DNA of 27,127 nt from a virus (taxonomy: Duplodnaviria; Caudoviricetes): positions 1 through 27,127 of IMG/VR virus record IMGVR_UViG_3300046007_006392; one strand, given 5' to 3'. Below are positions 281-22,386 of the stretch, piece after piece (position 1 is the first letter of the stretch; each line of letters opens with the position of its first letter). The notes under the pieces were generated by a model that ran no database searches, was not told the origin of the DNA, and saw only the letters and a program-made list of their open reading frames with translations. Made by a program: the position numbers and the translations under genes.

Positions 281-661
281 ATGGCAGTCATTTACGACAC
301 CCCCACCAAAGCAGCTCGCATGACCGCGGTTCGCGACCAGGTCGACTCCGGCAGCGGCCCCGGCGTGCTGCAGATCGGCACGGCCGGCATGGCCACCGTG
401 CTGGCTGAGATCACCCTCGACGACCCGTGCGGAACGGTCTCCGGCGCCGTGCTGACCCTCAGCGGATTCCCGAAGTCTGACACCTCGGCGAACGCCTCGG
501 GCACGCCTGCTGCCGCCCGTATCCGCGACAGCAACAACAACGATCGCATTACCGGCCTGACGGTTGGGTTGAGTGCTGCCGACATCATCCTCGACTCGCT
601 GTCCATCACCGCCGGTCAGACGGTGACCATCGACAGCGCGGCGATCACGCACGCGGCTTGA
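281..661 (+). CDS. Small virion structural protein (fibre-associated, beta-rich), 126 aa
   Basis: RBS GAAAGGAAAA; Thr/Gly/Ala/Ser-rich composition typical of the small proteins that precede phage head/tail fibre genes. Confidence 0.7.
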   Translation: MAVIYDTPTKAARMTAVRDQVDSGSGPGVLQIGTAGMATVLAEITLDDPCGTVSGAVLTLSGFPKSDTSANASGTPAAARIRDSNNNDRITGLTVGLSAADIILDSLSITAGQTVTIDSAAITHAA

Positions 662-669
662 GGTAGAGC

Positions 670-1077
670 ATGGCCGCATCACAACTTAGCTACACCCCCG
701 GCGCAGGCGCAAACGTCGCCACTGACCTGGATGCTGGCGGCGCCCACCACCAGAAGGCGCTGATCGAGCACTTGCAAGAAGGCGTGCCGACGCCCGTCAC
801 CGAAGACGCGCCCCTGCCCGTGGCCGACCGTCACACCGGCGGCCTGCTGCTGCGCATCCTGCAAATGCTCATGGCACCTCTGGGCTATGACAAGTCGCTT
901 GGGCGGCAGCGCGGCACAGTGGTGGTTGAAAGCGGCACGGTCACCGCAGTCACCACAGTCACGACAGTCACGACGCTGGCAAACATTGCAGCAGTCGGCG
1001 GCTACTCCGCGCAGATGACTGTGTTCGATCAAAACCGCTCCGCCTGGGCGCAATGTGTCCGAGCCCGCATCACCTGA
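670..1077 (+). CDS. Putative virion fibre-associated protein, 135 aa
   Basis: RBS GAGGT; contains the low-complexity run SGTVTAVTTVTTVTT; fits the operon. Confidence 0.65.
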   Translation: MAASQLSYTPGAGANVATDLDAGGAHHQKALIEHLQEGVPTPVTEDAPLPVADRHTGGLLLRILQMLMAPLGYDKSLGRQRGTVVVESGTVTAVTTVTTVTTLANIAAVGGYSAQMTVFDQNRSAWAQCVRARIT

Positions 1078-1086
1078 GAGAACAAA

Positions 1087-2703
1087 ATGGCAAACACCTT
1101 CAAGAAAGTCATCGACCAACTCGTCTGGCGGCAGGTCAACCCGGCGCCCAACGCCCATGCGGCTGCGGCTTCAATGGCTTCAGACCTGCGCTCCGATGTG
1201 TCTCGCAACCCGTTTGTCTACCAGACGATCAGCAACACGGTGGTGAACAGGTTCAACATCGTCACCAAGGCGTGGCAGCCGATGGCATCAATGGCCCTGG
1301 CGGGCACCTTCGGAGCTGGCGCGGCCTCGGCTTTTGTTCCGTCCCTCGGGCTGGTGGGCACCATTGCCGCAGGCGCGACCACCACCTCGGTCGTGATCTC
1401 CACCGCGTTTCCCACTGCGGTCGGCACCAACATGCTGGCCAACCGTGGTGGCTCTGGTGATTACGGCTTCAAGCTGCGAATCATCGACACCGTGGCCGGC
1501 AAGACCGCCGAGCGTTACATCACCGGCAACACCGCAGGCACCACGCCAACGATACAGGTGCTGAGTTCTTTTGGCTTCACACCCAGCAACGGCGCCCGGT
1601 ACGAGATCATCGCCGGCCGTTTGTTCAATCTGGGCGCTGGCGCCGTCGCCGCCAACATCTGGCGCTCGTTTGAGGTTGCGTCCAACACGCTGTCAACGGG
1701 CCTGTCAACCACCAACCTGCCCGCCACCATCGGCACCGACTCCGACATCATGGTGCTGGACGAGCAGTACACGCCCTACGATTGCAGCCCCGGCGACGGC
1801 ATGATCAAGGGCGCATACAACTACGACACGGGCGTGGTCAGTCGCTATGCCCTGACGGCCACAGCAGCGGGCGCATCCACCCTGACAGGACAGGCCACGC
1901 TGGGTGATGCGGTGGTGGTGGCAAACGAATACCGCAACTTCCAGATACGGATTGTTGAGGACACGACCACGCCCGCAGCGGTGGGTCAGCGGCGCATCAT
2001 CGCCAGCCACACCGCAGGCCCCAGCGCCGTCTACACGCTGGGCACCGCCTGGGCCACGCAGCCCTCAGCCAGCGCGAAGTTCGTGATCGAGCTGCCCAAC
2101 CTGCTGCTGATGCGCTCCACGGCCACCACCACGGTTTACACCTACAACTACGGCGATGCTACCGTCAACAACGGCACCAACAGCATTGCGGCCGGGGCGT
2201 GGTCGACTACCTACTTCGGGGCCGCCCCAGCGGCTCAAGCAGCGGGCGGTATGTGGATGCCGTCTTGGGGCATCCGGCCAGACGCAGCCCGCAACGCCCG
2301 GCACAGCTTCTGCTACTTCCTCCGGGGTGGCGCAGTCACGCTGGACGTTCTGGACATCGCCGCAAGCATCACGGGCACTTGGGCCGGGGCAATTGCTTAC
2401 GATGGCAACACGGTGACCATCGGCGTGGGCTCTTGCGGCGGGTACGCGCCGTTCGAGAACGAGGGGCGCATGTTCTACATCAACGCCTACGTCGCCAGCG
2501 CCGCCAACCAGTTCTTCCGCTTCGACGTGCAGAACCGAGTGCTCAGCCCGTACACCAACACCGACTTCATCCAGTCCGGCACGGCGGCACTCGGCAAGCG
2601 CATCGCAGCCTACGCGGCGCTGGACGGCACCGACACATACGATGTCGTGCTGATGCAGTCGCACCTCTCCACAATCTCGCAAGAACTGGTGGTGCTGGTA
2701 TGA
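1087..2703 (+). CDS. Putative receptor-binding/fibre-tip virion protein, 538 aa
   Basis: Thr/Ala/Gly-rich beta-type sequence with two copies of an internal module (...FKLRIID...ERYITGNTAG and ...FQIRIVED...RRIIASHTAG) and propeller-like motifs (VNRFNIVTKAWQ, FFRFDVQNRVLS). Confidence 0.7.
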   Translation: MANTFKKVIDQLVWRQVNPAPNAHAAAASMASDLRSDVSRNPFVYQTISNTVVNRFNIVTKAWQPMASMALAGTFGAGAASAFVPSLGLVGTIAAGATTTSVVISTAFPTAVGTNMLANRGGSGDYGFKLRIIDTVAGKTAERYITGNTAGTTPTIQVLSSFGFTPSNGARYEIIAGRLFNLGAGAVAANIWRSFEVASNTLSTGLSTTNLPATIGTDSDIMVLDEQYTPYDCSPGDGMIKGAYNYDTGVVSRYALTATAAGASTLTGQATLGDAVVVANEYRNFQIRIVEDTTTPAAVGQRRIIASHTAGPSAVYTLGTAWATQPSASAKFVIELPNLLLMRSTATTTVYTYNYGDATVNNGTNSIAAGAWSTTYFGAAPAAQAAGGMWMPSWGIRPDAARNARHSFCYFLRGGAVTLDVLDIAASITGTWAGAIAYDGNTVTIGVGSCGGYAPFENEGRMFYINAYVASAANQFFRFDVQNRVLSPYTNTDFIQSGTAALGKRIAAYAALDGTDTYDVVLMQSHLSTISQELVVLV

Positions 2704-2867
2704 GCATCGAAGACCTGATCCGCCTGATGGAGGCGCGGCTTGCCGCGCTGAACAGCGCTCGCGCATCGGCTGCGGCAGTGGGCGATCTGGAGCAGATCAC
2801 GCGGCTTGACGCCGAAGTCGCTAAAACGACCGCCACGCTCGACCGCCTGAAGACCCTGGTGGTGTAA
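2700..2867 (+). CDS. Small helical-hairpin/coiled-coil protein, 55 aa (MSIEDLIRLMEARLAALN...)
   Basis: ATGA overlap with the upstream stop; the real start is 2700, not the 2199 given in the ORF track. Confidence 0.7.
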   Translation: MSIEDLIRLMEARLAALNSARASAAAVGDLEQITRLDAEVAKTTATLDRLKTLVV

Positions 2868-2870
2868 CGC

Positions 2871-3941
2871 ATGTTTCTCACCCTGCTCCAATCCGGCGGG
2901 GCAGGGCCGCCGGCCATTACCGGCAACCTGTCGGCCGTCGAGTCCGGCGCCGACACTCTCAGCGCAGAAGGTGTCGTCCGCGTCAGCGGTGCGCTGTCTG
3001 CTGCGGAGGCAGGCGGCGACACCTTTGCCGCCAGCGGCGGAGCACCTGGCCCCGTCGCCGGCACCCTGGCCGCCACTGAAAGCGGCGCCGACGCCTTTGC
3101 CTCCGCCGGCAGGGCCATCATCAGGGGGGCGCTGTCCGCCGCGGAAAGCGGTGCGGATGCCGCAGCCTTTGCTGGCCGCGTCAGGGTTGGGGGCGCGCTT
3201 GCGGCCGCGGAGGGCGGGTCCGACGCCATTGCCTCAAGTGGCAAAGCCCTTGTCGAGGGCGCCGTGGCTGCCGCGGAGGTGGGTACGGACACTGCCGCCG
3301 CATCTGGCAAGGTGGCCGTCAAGGGGGCGCTCGCGGCGAGCGAGGCGGGAGCGGACACCGCAAGCTCCGTCGGCAGGGTCATTGTCAAGGGCGCGCTGGC
3401 GGTCACCGAGATTGGCGCAGACGGTCTTGCGGGCGCAGGCGCCGTCAAGGTCAAGGGCGGGCTTGCCGCCCAAGAGGCTGGCGCAGATGTCCTCGCCGCC
3501 TCGGGCTCCGTCAGCAACGAGATCACCGGCACTCTGGACGCGCTCGAAGATGGCGCGGATGCGGTATCCGCCTATGGCATCGTCAGGGTCCGTGGCGCAC
3601 TCGCGGTCAGCGAAGCCGGCGCCGACGCCTCGGCCGCGGCGGGCAGCGTCTTGGTCAGGGCCTCGGTCTCAGCGACCGAATCCGGGTCCGACACCGCCTC
3701 TGTGGCCGGCGAGGTCTCGTATGGGGCGCCGCCGTCGGCCATCTGGGGCTACACGCTCAGCAATGGCCTGACGGCCGGCCAGACGCTTGTGGAGCTGCAC
3801 GCGATGCTGCGTGAGCTGCACCAGATTCACGGCCTCGAGCTCGGCTCGCCGCTCATCGTGTCCGCCACCGAGCGCTCCGTTGCCTCGATCGTGCAGGGCA
3901 TCAGCGAGCTCGCGGGTTCCGTCACCGTCACAAGGCACTGA
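2871..3941 (+). CDS. Fibre-like virion protein with 12 tandem ~22-aa repeats, 356 aa
   Basis: Repeat consensus xVxGALAAxExGADxxAAxGxV occurs 12 times, followed by a distinct ~65-aa C-terminal domain. Confidence 0.75.
   Translation: MFLTLLQSGGAGPPAITGNLSAVESGADTLSAEGVVRVSGALSAAEAGGDTFAASGGAPGPVAGTLAATESGADAFASAGRAIIRGALSAAESGADAAAFAGRVRVGGALAAAEGGSDAIASSGKALVEGAVAAAEVGTDTAAASGKVAVKGALAASEAGADTASSVGRVIVKGALAVTEIGADGLAGAGAVKVKGGLAAQEAGADVLAASGSVSNEITGTLDALEDGADAVSAYGIVRVRGALAVSEAGADASAAAGSVLVRASVSATESGSDTASVAGEVSYGAPPSAIWGYTLSNGLTAGQTLVELHAMLRELHQIHGLELGSPLIVSATERSVASIVQGISELAGSVTVTRH
2916..3717 (+). repeat. Degenerate coding tandem repeat, ~66-nt unit x12
   Basis: Periodic GALxAxExGAD motif in the translation. 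Confidence 0.85.
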
Positions 3942-3943
3942 AG

Positions 3944-4162
3944 ATGACCACGCCCGCAAGAGTCTGGTCATACCCTATGAGCGGCGGCACCACTGGCACC
4001 CTTGCTGCGGCGTCTGAGATGAGCTGCAGGGAGGTCCACCAGATCACCGGGCTTGAGCCTGGCGCGCCCCTGATGAACAGCGAGTCCGCCAGGTCGGCGG
4101 GGGGCATCGCCCAGTCCATCGCAAGCCAGGGCGGCGCCACTGTCGTTGAGAGGCTGGCCTGA
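3944..4162 (+). CDS. 72-aa protein paralogous to the C-terminal domain of the upstream fibre protein
   Basis: VWSY...REVHQITGLEPGAPL...RSAGGIAQSI...TVVER aligns by eye with IWGY...RELHQIHGLELGSPL...RSVASIVQGI...VTVTR. Confidence 0.75.
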   Translation: MTTPARVWSYPMSGGTTGTLAAASEMSCREVHQITGLEPGAPLMNSESARSAGGIAQSIASQGGATVVERLA

Positions 4163-4425
4163 TGCTGTCCCCTCGCGCCATCGCCGTCCAGGGCATTGGG
4201 TATTCGCCCCGGGTTGCGGCGGTCCAGGGCTTTGCCGCTGTCGACCTGTTTGTGGTCGTCCCGTCCACCGGCGGCGGAGCGTCCGCCGGGGTTGACTCGT
4301 ACCGAGAGGTTCGGCGAAGCCTGTTCGGCCTGGATGAGAGCGACGTCGTCGCCCAGGTGCACCGACAGGACGAAGAGGTTTTGACCATCATTATGATGGC
4401 CGTGATTCGCGGAGATGTTCTATGA
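4162..4425 (+). CDS. Hypothetical late protein, 87 aa
   Basis: TGATG overlap upstream and ATGA overlap with the giant gene downstream; internal AVQG duplication. Confidence 0.65.
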   Translation: MLSPRAIAVQGIGYSPRVAAVQGFAAVDLFVVVPSTGGGASAGVDSYREVRRSLFGLDESDVVAQVHRQDEEVLTIIMMAVIRGDVL

Positions 4426-7400
4426 GCACACTGAAAATTTCTGGTTGCATGAGCGTTGTGAAGGACATGGGCGACCTCGATCGCGATGCCCTTCTGGAGC
4501 GCCTGGACCAGTACCGCGCCGACGGCGTGCCCGTTGAGCGCGCGCAGGTCATGGCCACAGCCGACACGATGGCCGAGCTCGAGGACGAGCGCCGCGAGTT
4601 CATGCGCCTGCTCAAGGAGCAGCACCCGGACATCTTCACGGTGACGGCCCCGGCCGAGCGCGAGGGCGGCATTCGCAAGAGCGCCGATCGCCAGATCGAC
4701 ACGCCCGAGTTCAAGAAGTGGTTCGGCGACAGCAAGGTGGTCGACGGCAATGGCCGGCCGCTGGTGGTGTACCACGGGACGCAGGGCGACTTCGACACGT
4801 TCCGCGACGACATTGAGGGGCGGGCGGGGTTCTACTTCACCAGCGACAAGGCGTTCGCCAGCAGCTTTGCGGAGGGTGGCGGCGCTAATGTCATGCCCGC
4901 CTACCTCTCGATCAGTAAGCCGGCGGATCTTCGGCGCGGTGTGCCAGGCAGCGTGTATGACGCGCTGGAAGGACAAGGCTACTCGCGTCTTGTCGAGCTG
5001 TACGAAAGCGACCCACAGGAAATTTGGAACTTCTTCGACGGCGACACTGAGCTGTCGGATGCGCTGAAGCGTGCAGGCTACGACGGCATGCGGTTGTCCG
5101 AGCCAAGTGGGCGCCGGGAGGTTTATTCGTGGGTGGCATTCCGCCCGGAGCAGATCAAGTCCGCCATCGGAAACAATGGCGACTTTGCGGCTGACAATCC
5201 GGACATCACCAAGTCCGCCGACCGCCAAACCGATACCCCCGAGTTCAAGCGCTGGTTCGCCGACTCGGTGATGACCGAGAACGGCAAGCCCGGCGGCGAG
5301 CCGCTGGTGCTGTACCACGGCGGCTTCGATTTCGCGCAGGCGCCCGATGGTAAGGCAGTGCCGAAGGTCAGCGGCCGCGGCTCACTGGGCGTCGGCTTCT
5401 ACATGACGCCCGACAAAGATCGCGCGCGCGGGTATGCCGAGGACAACAGCGGTGCCGTGAGCAGCCTCTACGTCCGCATGGAGCGCCCGCTGGAGATCCG
5501 CCTCTCGCGCGGCCAGGACCCCATGGTCGAGGCTTTGGTGGCCCTCGGCATGGACCGCGACAAGGCGGCAAGGAAGGTCGAGTCCGCCTACGAGAAGTAC
5601 GGCTACGTCGGCTCCGAGGTCAAGAGCCTGGCGCTGAATAAGGGCTACGACGGCCTGGTCGAGTACATCGGCAACAAGATGTCGGAGGTCGTTGTCTGGA
5701 ACCCGACCCAGGTCAAGAGCGCAACCAACAACGACGGCGGGTTCTCGTGGAACCCCGACATCCGCCGCAGCGCCGATCGCACCCCGCTCGGCTTCTACAG
5801 CGCTCTGGCGCGCGGCCTCCAAGACGCTCCGATCAAGTCCGCCCCAGCCGGCGCCTGGAAGACTGCGATCAAGGGCCTGATCAACAAGGGCGCCGTGAAG
5901 GCCGACGAGGTCGAGTGGTCAGGCATCAACGACTGGATCGATCTTGAGGGCCAACCCAAGCCCGTCTATGAAAGCGGATACGGCCTGATCGATGAGCACC
6001 AGAACGAGGATGGCACCTGGCAGCAGGTCGATGATCTCGGCGCCTATTTCCGCACCAAGGACGAGGCCGAGTCGGCGATCACAGACGAGTTGCGCCGGGC
6101 GTCAGAGGAGTGGGCAAAGAAGGAGGGCGTCAAGAGCCGTATCAGCGTCGAGAGCTTCGACAACCTTGACCTCGGAAAGACCGTCACCCCCAAGATCACC
6201 AAAGAGCAGGTCGCGCAGTACCTCGAGCAGGGCGGGGTGCGGGTTGAGGAGGTGGTGCTGGGAGAGACTGGCCTTGACGGCGGCACCGAAGGCTTTGTTG
6301 TTGGTCGATACGGCGACAAGGAGTGGGGCATTTATCGCGTCGACGACGGAGATTCTGCGGACCCTGTTGGGGGCACGTTCTCTTCTCGATCGGACGCTGA
6401 GCTGGCCCTTGAGAAAATGCAGGCAGACCTGCCAACTAAGTACAGCCAGTACACCCTACCCGGTGGCGAGAACTACCGCGAGGTGTTGCTGACGTTGCCC
6501 ATCAAGGCTGAGCCCAACGATCCTAAGCCGCTCAAGATTGAGCGCCGAGATGATGGGGCGTATGTGCTGTCTGACAAGTACGGCCCTGTCAAGACGGTCC
6601 CCACAATTGAAGAGGCGGAAGCATACCGGGATCGCCGCAGCGCAGACGACGCGGCCGTCTTGATGCGGCGTCGTGAAAATGAAGGCAAGCTGTACCGCTC
6701 CCCCCGCTGGGACCAACCCAACGTCCTCGCCCACATTCGTGTAAACGACCGCACCGATGCCGATGGCAAGCGCGTGCTGTTTGTCGAGGAGCTGCAGAGT
6801 GACTGGGGTCAGGAGGGGAAGAAGAAGGGGTTCAAGGGCGACCCGACCTACATGCAGGGCATGGAGGGTCAGGACGAAGGATTCGTTGGCCTCAATGCTT
6901 CTGGTGTGCCTCGCGCCCCCTTCGTCACCAAGACCGAAGGCTGGCTCAACCTCGCCCTCAAGCGCGTGATGGTCATGGCCGCAGAAGGTGGCTATGACAA
7001 GGTGGCGTTCGTCAACGGCGAGCAGTCTGCGGATCGGTATGACCTGAGCAAGCAGGTTGAGCGCATCGACGCGATGAGCGATGCCGCTCGCACCGGGGAG
7101 ACGTTCTACAACCTCGACATTTCCACGAAAGACGGCCGCGACTTCAACCGAGACGGCCTGACCGCCGATCAGCTTGAAGAGCACGTCGGCAAGGAAATGG
7201 CGCAGAAGATCGTTGAGTCGCTTCCTTCGCCTGGAATGAAGGCTAGGTTCTCTGGCCTTGACCTCAAGGTCGGCGGCGAAGGCATGAAGACCTTCTACGA
7301 CACCATCGTGCCCACAACGCTGAAGAAGCTGCTGCCGAAGGTGGGTGGTGGGCAGATGAGGGCTGTTGCTCTCGGCGGCGATTACTCCATCGAAGAGCGC

Positions 7401-10400
7401 CCCGGCAGCTACTATGCGATCGTCGAGAACGGTGAGCAGGTCGGCGGTCTTTACGACCTTCGCGTCGAGGCCGAAGAGGCGCTCGCCAAGATGAGCGGGG
7501 CGCAACCCGGCTTCGACGTCACCGACGCCATGCGCGAGAAGGTGGCCGGCGGCGTGCCGCTGTTCAGCCCGGATCGCGCCCAGACGCAGACGCCCGAGTT
7601 CAAGAAGTGGTTCGAGGGCTCCAAAGTTGTGAACGGCCTCGGCCAGCCGCGCGTCGTGTACCACGGCACAGCGGCCGACGTTGCGATCTTCGACATGGGT
7701 CGCGCCGGTCAGACCTACGGCCTCAAGGACGAGCAAGCCTTCTTCTTCACCGGCCGCCTGGAGACCGCAGAGTCTGCGGCCGACGACGCCACAGGCCTGC
7801 CGATCTACGCCGAGAAGTACCGCTACAAGGGCTTTGGCGGCGGCCGCGAGGTCGACACCGACTACGACTTCGATGACGGCGAAGCGTACGACAGCACGGC
7901 CCTGTACAACGGCGGCCAAAACGTGATGCCGGCGTACCTGGCGCTGAAGAACCCGCTGATCATCGATGCCGATGAAGGCTACGGCGCCGGAAGCTACCTC
8001 GAGAGCCGCGGCGAGCTCCCCGGGGCGCTGATCGCGCGCGCCAAGAGCGAGGGCTATGACGGCATCATCATTCGCGGCAAGTACCGCAATGTCGAGCGGA
8101 TCTCTCGGGTCCGAGCAAACAGCTGGATGAGCGACGCCGAGAAGAAGAAGATCCTCGAAGGCATCGCCCGCGAGGATGCCCGCAAGCGCCAGACCGACAA
8201 CTACTTCATCGCCTTCCGGCCCAACCAGATCAAGTCGGCGATCGGCAATATCGGCGCGTTCGGTCAGCGCCCAGTGACCGCCGAAGAGGCGGCTCGGTTC
8301 GGCATGGGCGAGATGGAGGCCAACTTCCGCCAGTACGAAGGCGATATCCGCTTCAGCGTCGACCGCGACTATGAGCCAGAGAGGACGGTCAAGGCCTACA
8401 AGCTCTTCCGCACCTCGCCGCGCGAGCCTGGCAAGCTGTTCCCGCTGTTCGTCAACGCCGACAAGTCGGTGCCGATGGGGCAATGGCTGCGCGCCGAAGA
8501 TGGGCCCGCGGCCGCCGGCGGCAAGGTCAAGTCCAAGCTGGGCCCGCTGGCCTACCGCCCGGGCTGGCACGCCGGTGACATGCCTGTTGCAACGCACATC
8601 GGCATGAAGCCGAAGCCGGGCGACAACAAGCCCACAGTGCGCAACCCTGAGCAAGTCTGGGCTGAGGTGGAGTTCGCCGCCGATGTCGACTGGCAGGAGG
8701 AGGCCAACAAGCGCGGCACCAACGCCCAGGGCAAGGTGGTGCCTGTCAAGGCGCACATCACCGACCGGGTTCCGGAGGGCGGCTTCTACCGCTACAAGAC
8801 CAACCCGAAGATGACGGGCGCCTGGTTGATCGGCGGCGAGATGAGGGTCAACCGCGTGCTGTCTGATGCGGATGTCAAGCGCATCAACGACAAGGCCGGC
8901 GTCGCCGACCTGCCGCGCGAGAAGCCGCTCGACCTCAAGGCAATGGGCTTCGCGGTGCGCAAGTCAGAGGATCGCGACGGCGGCGAGATCACCGTTGACT
9001 TCTCTGCCGACAAGCCATCCAGGGACAGGGCCAAGGCATGGGTGGCCAAGGTGAACGAGATGTTCCCTCGCAACCCAATGAACGGGCGCCAGCGCGTAAT
9101 GATGTTCGGCGAAGACGACATGGTCATCTTCGAGCTGGACGACAGCGTGACCGTGCCGGGCGCCGCTGAGGTCAAGTGGTTCCAGGCGTATCCGCTGCGC
9201 AGCGGCAACGGCACCAAGGGCATGCAGGAGCTGCAGCGCCTGGCGGCCGAGGACAACATGCCGCTGACGCTGTACCCCTGGGACAAGGGCCGCGTCAGCC
9301 AGGCGGCCCTGACCAAGTTCTACAAGAAGAACGGGTTCACGCCAATCCGCAAGGGTGGCAAAGATCTGGTGTGGCGGCCGGAGGCCGACATCACCAAGTC
9401 CGCCGATCGTGTCCAGGCCAGCGAGAAGCGCGACACCAGCAGCGCCGAGCGGTTTGATCCAAAGCAAATTGAGAACAACCGCGTCCCGGATTACAAGAGC
9501 CGCGAAAAGCTGATTGACATGCCGATCGGCGACTTCTTGGCGTTAGCCGAGAAAGGCGAAGAAGAGGCCAAGGGGCGTGACGTCAAAAAGCTGCTGGACA
9601 ACGGCGCCCGATTCAGTTCGCTGCCTTACCTAAACGTCGATTCGGATTACCGCGCAGACGGCCACGAAGGCCGCCACCGCGCCCGCGCCCTCAAGGCTGC
9701 GGGTTACGAAAAGATGCCCGTCATCCTGCGCGTGGCCGGGCTGCGCTGGAGCGAGCAGGCCGACCCCAGTCGATTCGACTACGTCAAGGACTGGCCGACC
9801 GAACTGCGAGCCCAAGCCACGGCTGAGAATCCCTCTTTTTCAATTCCATTTCCGGTTTCACGCGAGGACGCCATGACGCCGTACCGCGGCGACATCCGGG
9901 CCAGCGAGAAGCGTGACATCGACAGCCCGGAGTTCAAGCGCTGGTTCGGCGACAGCAAGGTGGTTGATGCCGAGGGCCGGCCGCTGGTTGTGTATCACGG
10001 GACTCATGCAAACGATTCGATTGAGCGGTTCTCGGAAGACAAGATCGGGAGTCGCACCGACGATGGGTTCATGGGCCGAGGCTTCTACTTCGGCGACTCA
10101 ACGGACGCCAGCTCATACGCCGGGTATCAACCCTTCAGCGACCCAAGCCGAAAGCCCAGCGGCGGTTCTGTCTACCCCGTCTACCTTTCGCTGCAAAATC
10201 CTCTTGTGCTGTTTGGCCGCAGGGTTGGGGAGCGTGTCAAGCGTATGCCTGATCGCGGCGTGTTGGCCCGAGATGCCGCCGGCCTGCCGCGCAGCGCAAG
10301 CGCCGCTGAACTTCGCGCCAAGCTGGAGGGGATGGGGCACGACGGCGTAATCTACACAGACGAACTTGGAACGCAGGAGTATGTCGCCTTCCGCCCTGAG

Positions 10401-13400
10401 CAGATCAAGTCCGCCATCGGCAACAGTGGCGCCTTCGATCCGGCAAACCCTGACATCACCAAGTCCGCCGATCGCACCCAGGCCGACACGCCCGAGTTCA
10501 AGGCCTGGTTCGGTGACAGCAAGGTGGTCGACGAGAACGGTGATCCGCTGGTGGTGTACCACGGGTCCAAAAACCCATCGATCACGAGATTCGACTTTAA
10601 GCCGAGGCTATGGGAGGGCCTGAAAAGCGCCCCAAGCAAGCAGCGCCCGGGATGGAAAGAGTTGCGCGGCACCGAGAAGCTGAGCGGCAACGAGCACCTC
10701 TTGGCCATGTGGCTCGAAGCCGGCGACAAGGTTGTTGTCAACTACGCCAGCGGAATGGAGGTTCTTGATAAGAGGGGCCGGCCCGCCGAAGCTGTCGTGC
10801 GCTCGCTGATGAACCCGCGAGAGCCAATCTCTGACCGCGTGGCGGCGGGACACCGAGCGATCTTCTTTGCAGAAGACATCGAGTACACGGGCTTCTACAG
10901 CGTATGGGGGAAAAGAGAGACTGGCGAGGCGCCTGTAACGTACCCGGTCTATTTGCGCGTCGAGAGCCCCGTCACGCCAGAAAGCTGGCCCGACTTCGAG
11001 CCCTTCTACAACAAAGCCACGGGAGGCGACAGGCGCAAGTTCGACCTCGCAAAGACGGCGTTTATGAACGAGCGCTGGGAGGCCTTCGAGGCTTACCCGG
11101 GTTTCATCGAGTACGCCATCTCCAAAGGCTACGACGGCTATTCCATGATCGAGGGCGGGGCCTCGGTTTTTGGCGGCTCCCCAGTGACCGAGCGGGCCCC
11201 GGGGGGCAAGCGAACCTGGGCCGTGTTTCGACCCACCCAAATCAAGTCCGCCATCGGCAACTCTGGCACGTTCGACCCAAGCAGCCCGGACATCACGAAG
11301 AGCGCCGACCGCCCCTGGTTCGACGACCTGAGCGAGCTCAAGATCTCGACCAACTACCAGCTCGGCGACCTGCTCAAGACGAGCAAGAAGCTGAACTGGT
11401 GGGATCGATCTGTCGGCACGCAGTACAACATCGCGCAGAAGCACCCGCAGTTCAAGCGCGTGTTCGATGCCGTGCAGCGCTTCATCAACGACGTCTCGGC
11501 CTACGCCACGCGCGCGGCCGACCTGGCGCCGTCGATCCTGCCCAAGCTCGAGACGCTCAAGGACGTCGCCCGCTCGCCGCTGTCGGCCGAGGACGTCAAG
11601 GCCCTGCGCGACCCGATCTTCGGCGGCACGCTGAAGTACACCCGCGACGACGAGGGCAACGTCATCGAGACCGATGACGTGTCGACGGCCGGCGTGGTGT
11701 TCACCAACGACGAGCTGCGCGAGCTGTTCGGCCTGAACGACCGCCAGGTCAAGCTGTACCGCGAGTTCCGCCGGGCGACCAACAAGAGCCTGACCGACTT
11801 GGCCGTCTCCGACATGCTGCGCTACCTGGGCACCGACGGTGCCGGCGTGCGCCAGCGTGCACTGGAGGCCACCAACCTGGACGGTGCACTCGATGCCATG
11901 GTCGCGCACCTGGACCAGCTCATCGAGCAGCAGCCGCAGCGCGCCAAGGTGCTCGAGGACAGCAAGCGCGCGATCAAGGAGAAGGCCGGCCAGGCCATCG
12001 GCCTGATGGCCCGCGGCTACGCCCCGCTGTCTCGCTTCGGCCAGTTCACGGTCTACGCCGTCAGCAAGGATGGCGAGCAGCTCTACTTCTCGATGTTCGA
12101 GAACGAGCGCGACGCCAACAAGATGGCGCGCGAGATGCGCGAGCAGTACCCCGACGCCACTGTCACCACGGGCACCATGAGCCAGGAGAGCTACAAGCTC
12201 TTCAGCGGCGTGACGCCCGAGACGCTGGCGCTGTTCGGCGAGAGCCTGGGCTTGGAGGAGTCTGGCGTCGACGCAAAGTCGGAGGTGTTCCAGGCCTACC
12301 TCAAGATGGCCAAGACCAACCGCTCGGCCATGAAGCGCCTGATCCAGCGCAAGGGCATCGACGGCTTCAGCGAGGACGCCGGGCGCGTGCTGGCGGGCTT
12401 CGTGTACAGCAACGCACGGCAGATCTCCACCAACCTGCACGCGGGCGAGATCAGCCGCTCGGCCGCCGCGGTGACTGACGGCGATGTGAAGGACGCAGCC
12501 ATCCGACTGGTGGATTACATCCAGAACCCGCAGGAGGAGGCGCAAGCCCTCCGCGGCCTGCTGTTCACGCAGTTCATCGGCGGCTCGATCGCGTCGGCCC
12601 TGGTCAACATGACCCAGCCGTTCACGATGACGCTGCCGTACCTGACCCAGTTCGATGGCACCGTTGGCGCGTCCAAGCGCATGGCAGACGCCGTCAGGCT
12701 GGTGTCGCGCGGCATTCGCAACGACGACGATCTCCAGGCCGCGCTCAAGCGTGGTGAAGAGCTCGGCATCGTCAGCCCGCAGGAGGTGCACCAGCTGATG
12801 GCCCAGGCCCAGGGCCGGGGCTCGCTGCAAAGCGGCGACGGCACCAAGGCGGGCGACGCCGCGGCCAAGGTCAACAACAGCATGGCCAAGCTCGGCCTGG
12901 TCTGGGGCAAGCTGTTCTCGGCCGCCGAGCAGTTCAACCGCCGCGTGACCTTCATCGCCGCCTACAAGCTGGCCCGCGACCAGGGTATGCCTGACCCCAT
13001 GGCGTTCGCTGAGCAAGCGATCGCCGAGACCCAGGGCGTCTACAACAAGGGCAACAAACCGAAGTGGGCACGCGGTGCGGTCGGCGGCACCCTGTTTACG
13101 TTCAAGCAGTATTCGATCGCCTACGTCGAGTTCCTGCGCCGCATGTGGGGCAACGGGCCCGAGGGCAAGAAGGCCGTCGGCCTGGCGCTCGGCGTGCTGT
13201 TCCTGACCGCCGGCATGAGTGGACTGCCTGGTGCCGACGACCTGGACGATGTGATCGACGGCTTCATGCAGCGCGTGCTCGGCCGCAGCTTCGACAGCAA
13301 GCAGGCGAAGAAGGAATTCTTCGCATCGATCCTAGGCCAGTCCGGCGCCGAGTTCGTCATGAGCGGGTTGTCCGGCCTGCCGGGCATGCCAATCGACTTC

Positions 13401-14033
13401 TCGGGTCGCATGGGCCTGGGCAACCTGTTCCCGGGCACGGGAACCCTCACCAAGAAGACCGACTACGGCCGCGACTTCCTCGAGGTCGTGGGCCCGGCCG
13501 GCACGCTGTTCGCCAACGCCGGCACCGCGCTGGCCAGCCTGGCCCAAGGCGAGGTCAAGAAGGCCGCCGAGGTGCTGGCGCCCGTGGCTGCGCAGAACGC
13601 GCTCAAGGCGGTTGACATGGCCCAGATGGGCTACTACCGCGACATGAAGGGCCGCAAGGTCGTCGACACCGACGGCTGGGATGCACTGGCCAAGTCGATC
13701 GGCTTCCAGCCGCGGGCCGTCGCGCAGGTGCAGGGCGCCACGATGACCCAGGCGAACCTGGTGGGCCAGAACAAGCTGCGCGAGACCGAGATCGCGGACA
13801 AGTGGGCACGCGGCCGCATCGAGCGCAAGCCCGACCTCATCCAGGAGGCCAAGGACGAGCTCGCCGACTGGAACCGCAAGAACCCCGAGAGCAAGATCAG
13901 GATCGACGAGGCGCAGATCAACAAGCGCGTGCAGGAGGCCAACAAGACCAAGGCCCAGCGCATCGCCGCCACCGCGCCCAAGGAGATCCGCAACGCGGTC
14001 AAGAAGCAGCTCGAGTCTGAGGGTGCCCAGTGA
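4422..14033 (+). CDS. Giant polyvalent protein (probable internal virion/ejected protein), 3203 aa: 5 ART-PolyVal-like domains, GNAT, ParB-like, two unknown domains, C-terminal PLxRFG region
   Basis: Uninterrupted 9.6 kb ORF; five blocks of the form PEFKxWFxxS...YHG...VYL...GYDG...QIKSA; motif GYAPLSRFG near 12015-12041; last gene of the late operon, followed by a terminator. Confidence 0.92.
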   Translation: MSTLKISGCMSVVKDMGDLDRDALLERLDQYRADGVPVERAQVMATADTMAELEDERREFMRLLKEQHPDIFTVTAPAEREGGIRKSADRQIDTPEFKKWFGDSKVVDGNGRPLVVYHGTQGDFDTFRDDIEGRAGFYFTSDKAFASSFAEGGGANVMPAYLSISKPADLRRGVPGSVYDALEGQGYSRLVELYESDPQEIWNFFDGDTELSDALKRAGYDGMRLSEPSGRREVYSWVAFRPEQIKSAIGNNGDFAADNPDITKSADRQTDTPEFKRWFADSVMTENGKPGGEPLVLYHGGFDFAQAPDGKAVPKVSGRGSLGVGFYMTPDKDRARGYAEDNSGAVSSLYVRMERPLEIRLSRGQDPMVEALVALGMDRDKAARKVESAYEKYGYVGSEVKSLALNKGYDGLVEYIGNKMSEVVVWNPTQVKSATNNDGGFSWNPDIRRSADRTPLGFYSALARGLQDAPIKSAPAGAWKTAIKGLINKGAVKADEVEWSGINDWIDLEGQPKPVYESGYGLIDEHQNEDGTWQQVDDLGAYFRTKDEAESAITDELRRASEEWAKKEGVKSRISVESFDNLDLGKTVTPKITKEQVAQYLEQGGVRVEEVVLGETGLDGGTEGFVVGRYGDKEWGIYRVDDGDSADPVGGTFSSRSDAELALEKMQADLPTKYSQYTLPGGENYREVLLTLPIKAEPNDPKPLKIERRDDGAYVLSDKYGPVKTVPTIEEAEAYRDRRSADDAAVLMRRRENEGKLYRSPRWDQPNVLAHIRVNDRTDADGKRVLFVEELQSDWGQEGKKKGFKGDPTYMQGMEGQDEGFVGLNASGVPRAPFVTKTEGWLNLALKRVMVMAAEGGYDKVAFVNGEQSADRYDLSKQVERIDAMSDAARTGETFYNLDISTKDGRDFNRDGLTADQLEEHVGKEMAQKIVESLPSPGMKARFSGLDLKVGGEGMKTFYDTIVPTTLKKLLPKVGGGQMRAVALGGDYSIEERPGSYYAIVENGEQVGGLYDLRVEAEEALAKMSGAQPGFDVTDAMREKVAGGVPLFSPDRAQTQTPEFKKWFEGSKVVNGLGQPRVVYHGTAADVAIFDMGRAGQTYGLKDEQAFFFTGRLETAESAADDATGLPIYAEKYRYKGFGGGREVDTDYDFDDGEAYDSTALYNGGQNVMPAYLALKNPLIIDADEGYGAGSYLESRGELPGALIARAKSEGYDGIIIRGKYRNVERISRVRANSWMSDAEKKKILEGIAREDARKRQTDNYFIAFRPNQIKSAIGNIGAFGQRPVTAEEAARFGMGEMEANFRQYEGDIRFSVDRDYEPERTVKAYKLFRTSPREPGKLFPLFVNADKSVPMGQWLRAEDGPAAAGGKVKSKLGPLAYRPGWHAGDMPVATHIGMKPKPGDNKPTVRNPEQVWAEVEFAADVDWQEEANKRGTNAQGKVVPVKAHITDRVPEGGFYRYKTNPKMTGAWLIGGEMRVNRVLSDADVKRINDKAGVADLPREKPLDLKAMGFAVRKSEDRDGGEITVDFSADKPSRDRAKAWVAKVNEMFPRNPMNGRQRVMMFGEDDMVIFELDDSVTVPGAAEVKWFQAYPLRSGNGTKGMQELQRLAAEDNMPLTLYPWDKGRVSQAALTKFYKKNGFTPIRKGGKDLVWRPEADITKSADRVQASEKRDTSSAERFDPKQIENNRVPDYKSREKLIDMPIGDFLALAEKGEEEAKGRDVKKLLDNGARFSSLPYLNVDSDYRADGHEGRHRARALKAAGYEKMPVILRVAGLRWSEQADPSRFDYVKDWPTELRAQATAENPSFSIPFPVSREDAMTPYRGDIRASEKRDIDSPEFKRWFGDSKVVDAEGRPLVVYHGTHANDSIERFSEDKIGSRTDDGFMGRGFYFGDSTDASSYAGYQPFSDPSRKPSGGSVYPVYLSLQNPLVLFGRRVGERVKRMPDRGVLARDAAGLPRSASAAELRAKLEGMGHDGVIYTDELGTQEYVAFRPEQIKSAIGNSGAFDPANPDITKSADRTQADTPEFKAWFGDSKVVDENGDPLVVYHGSKNPSITRFDFKPRLWEGLKSAPSKQRPGWKELRGTEKLSGNEHLLAMWLEAGDKVVVNYASGMEVLDKRGRPAEAVVRSLMNPREPISDRVAAGHRAIFFAEDIEYTGFYSVWGKRETGEAPVTYPVYLRVESPVTPESWPDFEPFYNKATGGDRRKFDLAKTAFMNERWEAFEAYPGFIEYAISKGYDGYSMIEGGASVFGGSPVTERAPGGKRTWAVFRPTQIKSAIGNSGTFDPSSPDITKSADRPWFDDLSELKISTNYQLGDLLKTSKKLNWWDRSVGTQYNIAQKHPQFKRVFDAVQRFINDVSAYATRAADLAPSILPKLETLKDVARSPLSAEDVKALRDPIFGGTLKYTRDDEGNVIETDDVSTAGVVFTNDELRELFGLNDRQVKLYREFRRATNKSLTDLAVSDMLRYLGTDGAGVRQRALEATNLDGALDAMVAHLDQLIEQQPQRAKVLEDSKRAIKEKAGQAIGLMARGYAPLSRFGQFTVYAVSKDGEQLYFSMFENERDANKMAREMREQYPDATVTTGTMSQESYKLFSGVTPETLALFGESLGLEESGVDAKSEVFQAYLKMAKTNRSAMKRLIQRKGIDGFSEDAGRVLAGFVYSNARQISTNLHAGEISRSAAAVTDGDVKDAAIRLVDYIQNPQEEAQALRGLLFTQFIGGSIASALVNMTQPFTMTLPYLTQFDGTVGASKRMADAVRLVSRGIRNDDDLQAALKRGEELGIVSPQEVHQLMAQAQGRGSLQSGDGTKAGDAAAKVNNSMAKLGLVWGKLFSAAEQFNRRVTFIAAYKLARDQGMPDPMAFAEQAIAETQGVYNKGNKPKWARGAVGGTLFTFKQYSIAYVEFLRRMWGNGPEGKKAVGLALGVLFLTAGMSGLPGADDLDDVIDGFMQRVLGRSFDSKQAKKEFFASILGQSGAEFVMSGLSGLPGMPIDFSGRMGLGNLFPGTGTLTKKTDYGRDFLEVVGPAGTLFANAGTALASLAQGEVKKAAEVLAPVAAQNALKAVDMAQMGYYRDMKGRKVVDTDGWDALAKSIGFQPRAVAQVQGATMTQANLVGQNKLRETEIADKWARGRIERKPDLIQEAKDELADWNRKNPESKIRIDEAQINKRVQEANKTKAQRIAATAPKEIRNAVKKQLESEGAQ
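4692..5201 (+). other. Cassette 1: ADP-ribosyltransferase-like (ART-PolyVal-like) domain
   Basis: TPEFKKWFGDSKVVD, YHGT, GFYFTS, VMPAYL, GYDG, FRPEQIKSAIGN. Confidence 0.8.
5226..5756 (+). other. Cassette 2: ART-PolyVal-like domain
   Basis: TPEFKRWF, YHGG, GVGFYMT, GYDG, SEVVVWNPTQVKSA (candidate catalytic Glu present). Confidence 0.8.
5781..7559 (+). other. Cassette 3: ~590-aa uncharacterised polyvalent-protein domain (FYSAL...NYREVLLTLP...VEELQSDW...GEGMKTFYD)
   Basis: Bounded by linkers; motif blocks of a type I recognise from large phage virion proteins, but I cannot name the family. Confidence 0.55.
7578..8342 (+). other. Cassette 4: ART-PolyVal-like domain with acidic insertion
   Basis: TPEFKKWF, YHGT, AFFFT, VMPAYL, GYDG, FRPNQIKSAIGN. 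Confidence 0.8.
8367..8954 (+). other. Cassette 5: uncharacterised domain (AYKLF...LAYRPGWH...VWAEVE...GGFYRYKTN)
   Basis: Bounded by linkers DIRFSVDR and VRKSEDR; enzyme-like motifs, family not assigned. Confidence 0.5.
8976..9386 (+). other. Cassette 6: GNAT-fold acetyltransferase domain
   Basis: Acetyl-CoA-binding motif A (LRSGNGT) and motif B (LTKFYKKNGF). Confidence 0.75.
9436..9890 (+). other. Cassette 7: ParB/sulfiredoxin-like domain
   Basis: LPYL...DGHEGRHRARALKAAGYEKMPVIL matches the ParB/Srx GxHR core. Confidence 0.7.
9915..10451 (+). other. Cassette 8: ART-PolyVal-like domain
   Basis: SPEFKRWFGDSKVVD, YHGT, GRGFYFG, VYPVYL, GHDG, QEYVAFRPEQIKSAIGN (candidate catalytic Glu present). 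Confidence 0.8.
10476..11288 (+). other. Cassette 9: ART-PolyVal-like domain with a large insertion
   Basis: TPEFKAWFGDSKVVD, YHGS, IFFAED, TYPVYL, GYDG, FRPTQIKSAIGN. Confidence 0.75.
11313..14033 (+). other. Constant C-terminal body with PLxRFG domain
   Basis: GYAPLSRFG motif; helical sequence with a hydrophobic Gly-rich stretch (AVGLALGVLFLTAGMSGLPGA); strongly G/C-ending codons. Confidence 0.75.
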
Positions 14034-14083
14034 TGTGATGTTGCGAAGTGTCGGCACTTCGCGGCCACTGACGACGATTCGCA

Positions 14084-14108
14084 ACCGCCCTTCGGGGCGG
14101 TCTTTTTT
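14084..14108 (+). terminator. Rho-independent terminator of the late operon
   Basis: ACCGCCC-TTCG-GGGCGGT stem with a C(UUCG)G loop, then CTTTTTT. Confidence 0.85.
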
Positions 14109-14109
14109 G

Positions 14110-14137
14110 TTGCGCGCACGCAACGGTTCAGTAGAAT
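14110..14137 (+). promoter_or_regulatory. Putative sigma70 promoter
   Basis: TTGCGC-16 nt-TAGAAT, ending 5 nt before the ATG at 14143. Confidence 0.5.
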
Positions 14138-14142
14138 CGGCG

Positions 14143-14268
14143 ATGCGTTGCTGGCCATCCATCTGCGGAGTCTCCATCCTAATCGGCCTCGTCACCCTGG
14201 CCGCATCGCACCCGGCGCTGGCCGTGGTAATTGGAGGCGCGCTGTACGCGCTCTGGCGCACTTGCTAG
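14143..14268 (+). CDS. Small hydrophobic membrane protein, 41 aa
   Basis: MRCWPSICGVSILIGLVTLAASHPALAVVIGGALYALWRTC: two hydrophobic segments around HP; fills the gap between terminator and attP. Confidence 0.5.
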   Translation: MRCWPSICGVSILIGLVTLAASHPALAVVIGGALYALWRTC

Positions 14269-14289
14269 TGTCGACCGGCGGTGACCGTG

Positions 14290-14302
14290 CAAGTTGTTGA
14301 AA
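14290..14302 (-). promoter_or_regulatory. IHF-like site left of the att core
   Basis: Minus strand TTTCAACAACTTG, one mismatch to WATCAANNNNTTR. Confidence 0.55.
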
Positions 14303-14540: not shown

Positions 14541-15680
14541 ATGGCCTTTGTTCGCAAGACCAAATCCGGCAAGTTTGAGCTGCGCATCCGCAGCAAGTTG
14601 CTGCCCAAGGATGTCTACCTCACCTTCGACGATGAGGCCGAGGCGCACAGCTACGGCGACCAGGCCAAGAGCCTTCTGGCCGACGGCATCGTTCCCGCGG
14701 CCTTCATCGACACCAAGGTCAAGCCGCTCGACTCCGTCGCCGAGATCGTGCGCGCCTGGCGCTTTAAGGGCGATCTGTCCGGGTCCGACGACGACGTCCT
14801 GAACCACGTCCTTGCCGACCTGGGCGGCATGCGCCTGGACGAGCTGACCTACAAGTGGGCCGAGGCGTGGGTGACCCACCTCAAGCGCAAGACCAACCTG
14901 GCCCCCGGCACCATCCGCAAGCGCGTGGGCTGCCTGGCCAGGGCGCTGGACTGGTATCTGCGCTCGCACCCCGACATCCAGGTGGCCAACCCGCTGCGGC
15001 TGCTGCCCAAGGGGTACGCCACCTACACCGCTCGAGACGCCGAGGCCATCAAGGGAACCAGCGCGGTGGTGAAGTCGGACGTGGAGCGGGACCGGCGCCT
15101 GCTGCCCAACGAAGAGGCTGTGCTGGCCCGCGTGCTGGATGGCGAGCGGCGGCCGGACCGGGAGCGGTCCCTGCAGGTTGATCCGGCCTTCAGGCTGCTG
15201 TTCCTGCTGATCCTGAACACCGGCATCCGGCTGCGCGAGGCGTACACCCTGCACCGCAGGCAGGTGTCAGAGACCTTTGTGCGCGTTCAATCGGGCAAAT
15301 CCAGGGCAGGGGTGCCTGAGTTCCGAAACGTGCCCCTGGTGCGCCACCTGCGCCCCTTGCTGGCCGCCTGGGTGCAGGACATCCCGGCCGATCAGCCCGT
15401 CTTCCCGTTTTGGAACGGCGACCCCGAGGAGCTCGACCGCGTGACCGCAAAGCTCTCGCGCCGGTTCGGCACGCTGTTCGACTATGCCGGCCTGGCTGAC
15501 CTGACCGAACATGACCTGCGACATGAGGCGACATGCCGGTGGTTCGAGATGCGATCCGATGATGGCAACTGGCTGTTCCGGGAGGGCGAGATCCGCAAGA
15601 TCATGGGCTGGTCGGTCAAGAGCCCGATGCCTGCCCGATACGCCAGCTTCAGGGCCGAGGATCTCGCGGCAAGGCTCTGA
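14541..15680 (+). CDS. int: Tyrosine integrase (HP1/Rci-like catalytic domain), 379 aa
   Basis: TGIRLREA (Arg), HDLRHEA (HxxR), MGW, RYA (Tyr); adjacent to attP. Confidence 0.93.
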   Translation: MAFVRKTKSGKFELRIRSKLLPKDVYLTFDDEAEAHSYGDQAKSLLADGIVPAAFIDTKVKPLDSVAEIVRAWRFKGDLSGSDDDVLNHVLADLGGMRLDELTYKWAEAWVTHLKRKTNLAPGTIRKRVGCLARALDWYLRSHPDIQVANPLRLLPKGYATYTARDAEAIKGTSAVVKSDVERDRRLLPNEEAVLARVLDGERRPDRERSLQVDPAFRLLFLLILNTGIRLREAYTLHRRQVSETFVRVQSGKSRAGVPEFRNVPLVRHLRPLLAAWVQDIPADQPVFPFWNGDPEELDRVTAKLSRRFGTLFDYAGLADLTEHDLRHEATCRWFEMRSDDGNWLFREGEIRKIMGWSVKSPMPARYASFRAEDLAARL

Positions 15681-22084: not shown

Positions 22085-22386
22085 TGCTGGCGCTTCAGCC
22101 ATGCAGTGCTTGCCCATTCGCGCTCAGGCCTGCCGGTGAGCGACGGCACGGTTCTGCCGGTTGTGGCCACCAAGCCCTCGCGTTGCATCTCCGGCAGGCG
22201 CCTGGCCACGGCCACGCCGTCCAGTCCGGTGACGTGGGCGATGCCGTCTTTGCCGAGGGGCCCCATGGACAAGCACTCCAGGATTCTCTCTGCGTGCCGC
22301 CGGGCCAGGCCGTCAGCGGCGCCGGCTGCGATGTGACTGGTGACGGGGTCGCTGGCGCGAGCCCGCACATGCTCTTCGTTGATCAT
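22081..22386 (-). CDS. Winged-HTH DNA-binding protein, 101 aa
   Basis: ARASDPVTSH leader, then ILECL...GIAHVTGL...RRLPEMQREGLV. Confidence 0.7.
   Translation of the reverse strand: MINEEHVRARASDPVTSHIAAGAADGLARRHAERILECLSMGPLGKDGIAHVTGLDGVAVARRLPEMQREGLVATTGRTVPSLTGRPEREWASTAWLKRQQ

Follow-up and report, generated by a model that had tools for sequence, protein, structure and literature searches.

A predicted phage ejection protein with a modular cargo array and a recurring seven-residue peptide at its joints

How might a single phage gene gain, lose and exchange whole protein domains and still be read through in one frame? The question is raised by a Caudoviricetes virus record, IMGVR_UViG_3300046007_006392 (27,127 nucleotides (nt), that is, the whole 27-kb record, 33% complete; hereafter designated the window), in which the frame at 4422-14033 (+) is open across 3203 codons. 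We found that the encoded giant protein is divided by a recurring seven-residue peptide (hereafter, the linker) into nine domain-sized cassettes, followed by a constant C-terminal body of the PLxRFG family (Table 1). We read it as a predicted ejection protein with peptide-separated cargo, in which relatives swap whole domains at or beside the peptide, the shared codons likely serve as in-frame joints, and the peptide is possibly a cut site; this reading as a whole is given a probability of roughly 0.72. That the protein represents a modular cargo array with joints used in recombination is well supported by the sequence comparisons described below.

Ten linkers of the form I/V/P-x-x-S-x-D/K-R partition the cassette region into the nine cassettes, plus one 7-residue stub (9411-9431). 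The pattern, which was written from this same protein, is matched 10 times in the cassette zone as against a mean of 0.09 (maximum 2) in 2000 shuffles, and the linker-bounded array of nine cassettes, proposed in an original prediction made from the DNA letters alone, was thereby recovered. Five of the nine cassettes (1, 2, 4, 8, and 9) score 63–105 bits with PF18760, the ART-PolyVal profile of the ADP-ribosyltransferase (ART) type, passing its cut-off of 31.2 bits in agreement with their earlier labels. The body, likewise as labelled before, matches NF032893 (PLxRFG) at residues 2532-3189 with 616 bits (cut-off 100; E 1e-184); the PF18799 (= LPD5) profile gave no match, a result uninformative on PLxRFG. 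The protein is a multidomain polypeptide of the polyvalent type, having five PF18760 domains, a GNAT-fold domain, and the PLxRFG body in one chain, and it is phage-encoded among virion genes, as seen from the virus record, an upstream PHROG virion structural protein, and the sister gene with InPase and ART domains in relatives.

The body, used as a query, matched 15 viral loci. In three relatives (L002, L003, and L004), the bodies are 96–97% identical and the cassette content is different, with 2, 4, and 3 of the window's cassettes, respectively, missing from their sequenced parts. Thus, L002, whose 5' end is cut, is without cassettes 7 and 8 and loses the ParB-like cassette across a 15-nt common tract. 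L003 is without cassettes 1, 5, 6, and 9, has a different core in slot 4, and crosses over from an ART1-type tail (70/70 nt upstream) to the ParB-like cassette (67/70 downstream) through a 20-nt common tract. L004 is without cassettes 7–9, carries other cargo ahead of linker L1 and a true GNAT in slot 2, and passes from GNAT (65/70) to body (70/70) through a 6-nt common tract. Moreover, 712 different letters replace 4777-5202 in a contig of sequencing run X5; among the run-contig joints, most have sides of <45 nt and probably come from other phages, and X5 contig 9 alone was used. By hand count, 6 of the 14 content-changing switch points fall inside linkers, which cover 5.3% of the region, and all 14 fall inside zones, drawn after seeing the data, that make up 17% of it. 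The clustering of breakpoints in or beside linkers that had been predicted is therefore observed, and no fixed domain order is kept, either in these close relatives or in wider homologues. A search of viral contigs with 20-mers matched only four close records. Separately, L021 (4987-8500) holds an interrupted copy (frameshift, insertion, or assembly error), in which the cassette gene starts at 5000 and the body frame appears only near 8501.

Of the best 120 full-length homologues examined, 45 (window protein included) have bodies at least 68% identical. A linker profile built from 89 strict sites, excluding the window protein and its closest match, finds 238 linkers upstream of the bodies, compared with 2.2 in shuffles, and 7 within bodies. 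In the 43 homologues left after removal of P0034 and P0040, the cassettes number 2–9 per protein and form 39 distinct label strings, the window's nine being the maximum, where the seed labelling places unknown domains under one label and missed linkers can merge cassettes. The ART of cassette 1 and the last cassette of P0016 share 88% identity on bodies that are only 77% identical; for the ART of cassette 2 and the last cassette of P0025, the identity is 97%, with bodies only 75% identical. Cassettes therefore move between carriers and slots.

The body also points to how the cargo may be delivered. It is 46% identical to the C-terminal part of phage H66 gp60, annotated in its record as a virion protein verified by mass spectrometry. 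H66 gp60 has been called an IVP-D homologue with passenger domains (PMC4819975; this and the other papers cited by accession were available in part, and statements about them refer to those parts), the homology of the present body to T7 IVP-D being transitive through gp60, and JC1 gp69 has been detected in virions (PMC9144972). By analogy with such homologues, virion location of the giant protein and enzyme activity of its cassettes are predicted. A second giant gene, the sister gene, is present in G001, G002, and G004; in it, an HExxH motif is followed directly by cassettes bearing the same linker, and profile search places an InPase domain and an ART in the sister genes of G001 and G002. Sister and cassette genes form one open reading frame (ORF) at four other loci. 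The HExxH motif is present in G001, G002, G004, G006, and the four fused proteins, and the linker array begins right after the HExxH domain in sister and fused proteins alike. In the near-identical record G006, the sister gene ends 175 nt left of the window and has two extra cassettes at the first joint compared with G001.

A zincin metallopeptidase (MPTase) has been proposed to process polyvalent proteins (PMC5512222), and the distribution of the linker is consistent with a role in the cargo stretch: in 18 proteins with DNA sequence, the strict motif occurs 71 times in 26,678 residues of cassette zones (0.7 in shuffles), 0 times in 13,471 residues of bodies, and 0 times in 6,729 residues before the HExxH motif. 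Confinement to the cargo would equally suit a packaging, unfolding, or chaperone-binding tag for head loading or ejection-tube threading, which would not be a cut site and would leave recombination as in our reading. In T4 and P1, short peptides indeed target proteins to the capsid (PMC9026906, PMC9024508), and N4 vRNAP, ArdC, and TraC1, each with an MPTase, undergo packaging or transfer without being cut (PMC5512222). The T4 and P1 peptides, however, are single and N-terminal, whereas the present motif stands at each boundary, starting directly after the zincin-like domain; we consider the tag unlikely, though deserving attention.

Alternatively, the linker might be functionless, being the C-terminal end of the ART module that has spread through captured ART 'shells', with broken domains purged. 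ART heads and tails themselves act as switch points, and homologues of cassettes 5 and 7 occur as solo proteins without a linker. Moreover, the L004 GNAT is flanked by a 9-residue ART head stub and an 8-residue ART tail stub, and the window's ParB-like cassette sits between duplicated ART-head-like stubs, suggesting that incoming cargo can be inserted within an ART shell and keep the stubs of that shell. Against a functionless remnant, the motif is also found closing the N-terminal domain, the GNAT-fold cassette (where 39 of 40 copies end in PLFSxDR), and the HExxH domain, and its forms there do not resemble the ART tail. The motif persists although its Ser is drawn from either codon family, it is doubled in seven stubs of 7–20 residues that retain two linkers, and in 42 of 45 proteins it stands just ahead of the body, regardless of what comes before. 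Distant homologues also keep F/Y/M/A-S-R or FSL near the body start (44/75, compared with 71/1480 background windows). This explanation is accordingly judged rather improbable.

The preferred reading, an array with joints held at the peptide level, was further examined at the level of codons. The linker Ser is encoded by AGY in 37 cases and by TCN in 34, and at 67 unique linker sites the codons chosen differ little from the general usage of the gene concerned; because of this background choice and the use of both Ser families, the joint appears to be a peptide-level signal. The original prediction had emphasized conserved junction DNA. Its three exact repeats are present (a 20-mer at 5202/9387/10452, a 23-mer at 5148/10398, and a 25-mer at 4701/7590), but two of them are ART head and tail motifs, not linkers, and conservation applies to a subset of linkers and not generally, as in-register identical runs reach at least 15 nt in 3 of the 45 window linker pairs and at least 9 nt in 11, with a median identity of 13/21 nt. 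Identical codons number 129/187 in ART heads, compared with 102 expected from cassette codon usage or 131.5 from body usage, and 101/179 in ART tails, compared with 96 or 125. A DNA-selected junction was rejected, the synonymous excess in ART heads (z 4.3, from non-independent pairs) having vanished with body codon usage. Junction identity beyond amino-acid conservation and codon bias was largely not borne out; the L1/L6/L8 trio alone stands out (post-hoc p ~0.0006–0.004), sharing the exact 20-mer with the minority Ser codon.

This trio and a tyrosine integrase gene at 14541-15680, 0.5 kb downstream of the giant gene, would fit junctions that serve as DNA-level sites for a site-specific recombinase, for example that integrase, as in integrons or shufflons. 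The background codon choice and the rarity of 15-nt runs shared by linker pairs speak against such sites, as do switch points whose place varies, being sometimes in the linker and sometimes next to it; of 205 inverted repeats, the 25 longest include none with both arms at one linker. The joints appear to have no fixed DNA core site of the integron or shufflon kind, and this explanation is very improbable, being largely refuted. The conserved unit thus appears to be the peptide, not the DNA, its codons presumably acting as microhomology. Misassembly at short repeats is scarcely credible as the source of the relatives' differences, for although all are metagenomic assemblies and 20–25-nt repeats exist, the variants carry different cassette cores, beyond deletions, with mosaic and diverged junction bases, single contigs of other runs agree with the window across 2.9 and 7.0 kb, and a fused linker-bearing relative is found in a Polynucleobacter isolate genome (L036). 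An assembly artefact in the giant gene itself is unlikely because L001 is 99.8% identical to it (possibly the same strain) and contigs of two runs agree: among contigs from four of the lake-water runs, those of X3 match 7505-10424 and those of X5 match 7269-14300 with zero differences (2/4 runs). All 24 listed runs containing the DNA are lake-water metagenomes. L036 (Polynucleobacter sp. UK-Kesae-W10) encodes a 3477-residue protein with HExxH and linkers and is a possible experimental handle.

A swappable, peptide-separated cargo array as favoured here would work in three steps. Very probably, the RecT/YqaJ pair would anneal short stretches of identity, both in linkers and at the conserved heads and tails of the ARTs, giving in-frame gains, losses, and moves of whole domains, and selection would retain products with intact domains; a crossover would keep the frame because every linker sits in the same one. 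With equally high confidence, the PLxRFG/IVP-D-type body would carry the array into the cell, where the ART- and GNAT-fold domains would modify host targets. Finally, with slightly less than an even chance, the sister ejection protein would use its zincin-like HExxH domain to cut at the linker, freeing each domain. As a tentative extension towards which we do not lean, I-x-x-S-x-D-R may be a dual code, being at once the cut site of a co-packaged zincin and the in-frame joint of RecT, between phages and between sister ejection genes, which would make an integron-like effector array with neither a dedicated site nor an integrase. In this version, the podoviruses concerned would encode a self-processing effector polyprotein, and each domain that ends in the peptide would be set free in the host as a separate enzyme.

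Several observations weigh against this reading. The remaining 8 of the 14 switch points lie outside linkers, either in the head or tail of an ART or no more than ~30 nt from a linker, and both L003 and L004 carry replacements of five cassette 3 loops at conserved islands of peptide other than linkers. Recombinases of the Rad52-like kind prefer homology that is short and diverged, and Red-beta has a minimal pairing segment of 23–27 bp (PMC3945230); the clean tracts of 6 and 15 nt are clearly below this, the third being 20 nt. Because the tracts are shorter, rarer microhomology or illegitimate joining with selection probably contributes, and the tracts common to the true parents of the crossovers may have been longer. 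Breakpoints would also gather at domain ends through domain-preserving selection alone. The ends of long alignments, which lie within 5 residues of a linker in 404 of 962 cases (42%, compared with 4% of positions), speak in favour of the reading, but the test is partly circular because linkers are conserved domain ends and the profile comes from the same proteins, with non-independent pairs and ASEKR-type linkers added by hand. For the cut, the window protein is without a protease of its own, PF18818 was unmatched by the sister HExxH domain in 5/5 relatives, and no peptidase family matched that domain. Beyond the giant proteins the motif is uncommon (3 matches in 69,942 residues of other frames), so that a cut finds no backing in maturation sites elsewhere. 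The cut, the recombination event, and the virion are all deduced. Collectively, the plug-and-play array of the original prediction stands as to variable order and breakpoints at linkers, and largely falls as to DNA-level junctions; ART ends and cassette 3 loops also switch.

Regarding the cargo itself, the ART cassettes have similar heads and tails and cores just 18–30% identical, for which reason recent tandem duplication was rejected. Their putative catalytic motifs, with H on strand 1, Y on strand 2, and D on strand 5 assigned by motif only, comprise YHG in 5/5, the strand-2 Tyr in 3/5 (Phe in cassettes 4 and 9), and G[YH]DG in 5/5, and homologues suggest ADP-ribosyltransferase-type activity. 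Cassette 3, one of the two formerly labelled unknown, is predicted to have a GNAT fold (fold only): its model (predicted local distance difference test (pLDDT) score, 85) best matches a GNAT with Z 10.1 and a root-mean-square deviation (rmsd) of 3.3 over 131 aligned residues, and nearly all of the 50 structural matches listed (Z 7.4–10.1) are named acetyl- or acyltransferases. Foldseek gave no match for it at E<=0.001, and the best Atlas score of 0.88 offered nothing usable. An initial guess of a PD-(D/E)xK nuclease was discarded, as the fold search gave GNATs instead. The five hypervariable loop regions of cassette 3 suggest swappable target-recognition inserts. The cassette 3 family (~590 residues, without a Pfam name) has 2027 matches among 8000 candidates and is present in 39/43 homologues; a 50-residue stretch resembles phrog_7348. 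The other, cassette 5, is possibly a divergent ART fold, its model (pLDDT 94) matching weakly (best Z 4.5, rmsd 4.1, 122 aligned), with most of the 50 structural matches listed being named ART/PARP/RES/DarT-type (Z <=4.5).

The GNAT and ParB labels of cassettes 6 and 7 found no Pfam match and were sustained indirectly. Cassette 6 is a probable GNAT, being 30% identical over 90 residues to an ORF in L052 that matches PF13508 with E 1.2e-5, just under the cut-off. Cassette 7 may be ParB-like as a lead only, from an Atlas score of 0.94 (157/256 features) against a cluster of which 58% of the members have ParB_N. Cassettes 3, 6, and 7 could not be named from Pfam, PHROG, or NCBIfam, and PDB sequence searches and Foldseek with the cassettes gave nothing usable. 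In L049 (435-1256), a cassette 7 homologue (55%) is the C-terminal domain of a 274-residue linker-free ORF in another phage, so that ParB-like cargo is common to a different small-protein context. Among the 120 homologues of cassette 5, 25 are solo proteins (P0242-P0361 as the protein set), 15 have MKxFxEF-type leaders, and 29 have AxGG motifs; other lineages may use other boundary peptides of these kinds. The MKxFxEF leaders presumably resemble the capsid-targeting tags of T4 internal proteins.

At split loci, the sister protein ends in Y-x-x-R...L-x-x-C-L-K(K), and the cassette protein starts with a Cys-bearing domain. These segments possibly rejoin the two halves as a coupler, perhaps disulfide-linked. 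A complex prediction for the sister end and the N-terminal domain scored 0.57, as against 0.00 for the best control, with runs agreeing in at least 98% of contacts and partner pLDDT of at least 76; the mark is reached by 116/157 solved and 2/215 mismatched pairs, and at <=0.60 by 18/157 solved pairs and both mismatches. The coupler complex, between halves of one split gene, is a weakly supported lead only. Between the sister gene and the cassette gene, 281-4425 holds tail-fibre- or head-decoration-like genes, as in G001, with one PHROG virion structural match and an Ala/Gly repeat protein at 2871-3941, with no such interval in G002 and G004, where one gene directly adjoins the other. An RNA ligase with an OB fold (PF09414, PF21189; 20946-22028, -) neighbours the RecT/YqaJ/RdgC recombination genes, and a role in tRNA-repair counter-defence is possible for it; no tRNA was found in the 27,127-nt window.

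Table 1 Positions of the linkers, cassettes, and other features (positions in the window unless a locus is named)
Feature	Position	Strand	Remark
Giant ORF, 3203 residues: N-domain, nine linker-bounded cassettes, PLxRFG body	4422..14033	+	
N-terminal domain with invariant Cys, start of the cassette gene where split from sister	4422..4670	+	possible coupler
Linker L0, IRKSADR	4671..4691	+	switch point in L003
Cassette 1, ART-PolyVal	4692..5204	+	absent in L003; core replaced in run X5 contig; 88% to P0016 last cassette
Linker L1, ITKSADR	5205..5225	+	inside 20-nt repeat at 5202
Cassette 2, ART-PolyVal	5226..5759	+	97% to P0025 last cassette; core replaced by GNAT in L004
Linker L2, IRRSADR	5760..5780	+	
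Cassette 3 ('U'), predicted GNAT fold, five hypervariable loop regions	5781..7556	+	structure model
Linker L3, PLFSPDR	7557..7577	+	
Cassette 4, ART-PolyVal	7578..8345	+	
Linker L4, IRFSVDR	8346..8366	+	
Cassette 5 ('X', phrog_30118), possibly divergent ART fold; also occurs as solo proteins	8367..8954	+	weak fold match
Linker L5, VRKSEDR	8955..8975	+	
Cassette 6, probable GNAT	8976..9389	+	transitive similarity
Linker L6, ITKSADR, with 7-residue stub VQASEKR (stub repeated at L7)	9390..9431	+	
Cassette 7, ParB-like (lead only), direct repeat flanking	9432..9893	+	absent in L002, L004
Linker L7, IRASEKR	9894..9914	+	
Cassette 8, ART-PolyVal	9915..10454	+	
Linker L8, ITKSADR	10455..10475	+	
Cassette 9, ART-PolyVal	10476..11291	+	absent in L003, L004
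Linker L9, ITKSADR, ahead of body	11292..11312	+	
Constant PLxRFG body, no strict linker inside	11313..14033	+	NF032893; 46% to H66 gp60
YqaJ exonuclease	22383-23027	-	candidate recombination machinery
RecT annealase	23434-24375	-	candidate recombination machinery
Invariant-Cys segments at split sites	window 4422-4670; L044 4491-4628; L053 17222-17359		

Much of this architecture has precedents. Polyvalent proteins, arrays of several ARTs, the proposed MPTase processing, and possible cassette recombination are already known from PMC5512222: polyvalent proteins likewise unite disparate enzyme domains, including ART, GNAT, and ParB-like domains, in a virion-type protein, H-Y-D ARTs occur in up to 12 copies in a Pseudomonas prophage protein, and cassette recombination was raised as a possibility for one Verrucomicrobium locus. 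The available main text of that paper contains no 'linker', 'shuffling', 'PLxRFG', joint motif, or mapped crossover, and its supplementary alignments may show the motif; the present comparison defines the joint and maps the crossovers at base level. The F116/H66-type IVP-D/PLxRFG ejection proteins (PMC4819975, NF032893) share a common body with passenger domains, the gene being fused or split in two, whereas H66 gp60 has methylase cargo, 0 strict linkers, and two FSR sites, as against the variable 2–9-slot array of the lake clade. Recombination at boundary sequences is an old idea in phage mosaicism (PMC3029335), and the boundary-sequence and Red-beta/RecT model (PMC3029335, PMC3945230) is alike in short-sequence crossovers between unrelated modules, RecT being encoded here as well; the present boundaries differ in lying inside one ORF, in frame, and in being maintained as peptide.

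T4 Alt and the internal proteins (PMC9026906) are alike in being head-packaged cargo, with a short cut peptide signal (gp21) and an injected ART. The T4 cargo, however, consists of separate proteins with N-terminal tags and an ART of the R-S-E clade, whereas the window encodes a polyprotein with H-Y-D ARTs and a possible cut only. Polymorphic toxins, as summarised in PMC5512222, also obtain effector variety by cassette recombination, but with one variable C-terminal toxin, whereas here many internal slots vary and the C-terminal body is constant, which sets the protein apart from a single variable C-terminal toxin slot. We found no published description of an inter-domain joint motif for such proteins, most subscription journals being outside the search, and the available parts of PMC9503650, PMC9144972, PMC9505181, PMC9024508, PMC9026906, PMC4819975, PMC3945230, and bioRxiv 10.64898/2026.04.10.717836 hold none.

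Two questions about polyvalent proteins have stood since 2017: by what route their domains come and go, and whether the proteins are cleaved apart by their own metallopeptidases. The present locus supplies a seven-residue joint, base-level crossovers, and a candidate protease, by which both questions become open to simple assays. Individual effector cassettes are also seen to move between phages with carriers that are roughly one quarter different, and predicted folds are now given to two unannotated cargo families. If the cut is true, the linker–protease pair would be a natural tool for bringing several proteins into bacteria from one phage gene.

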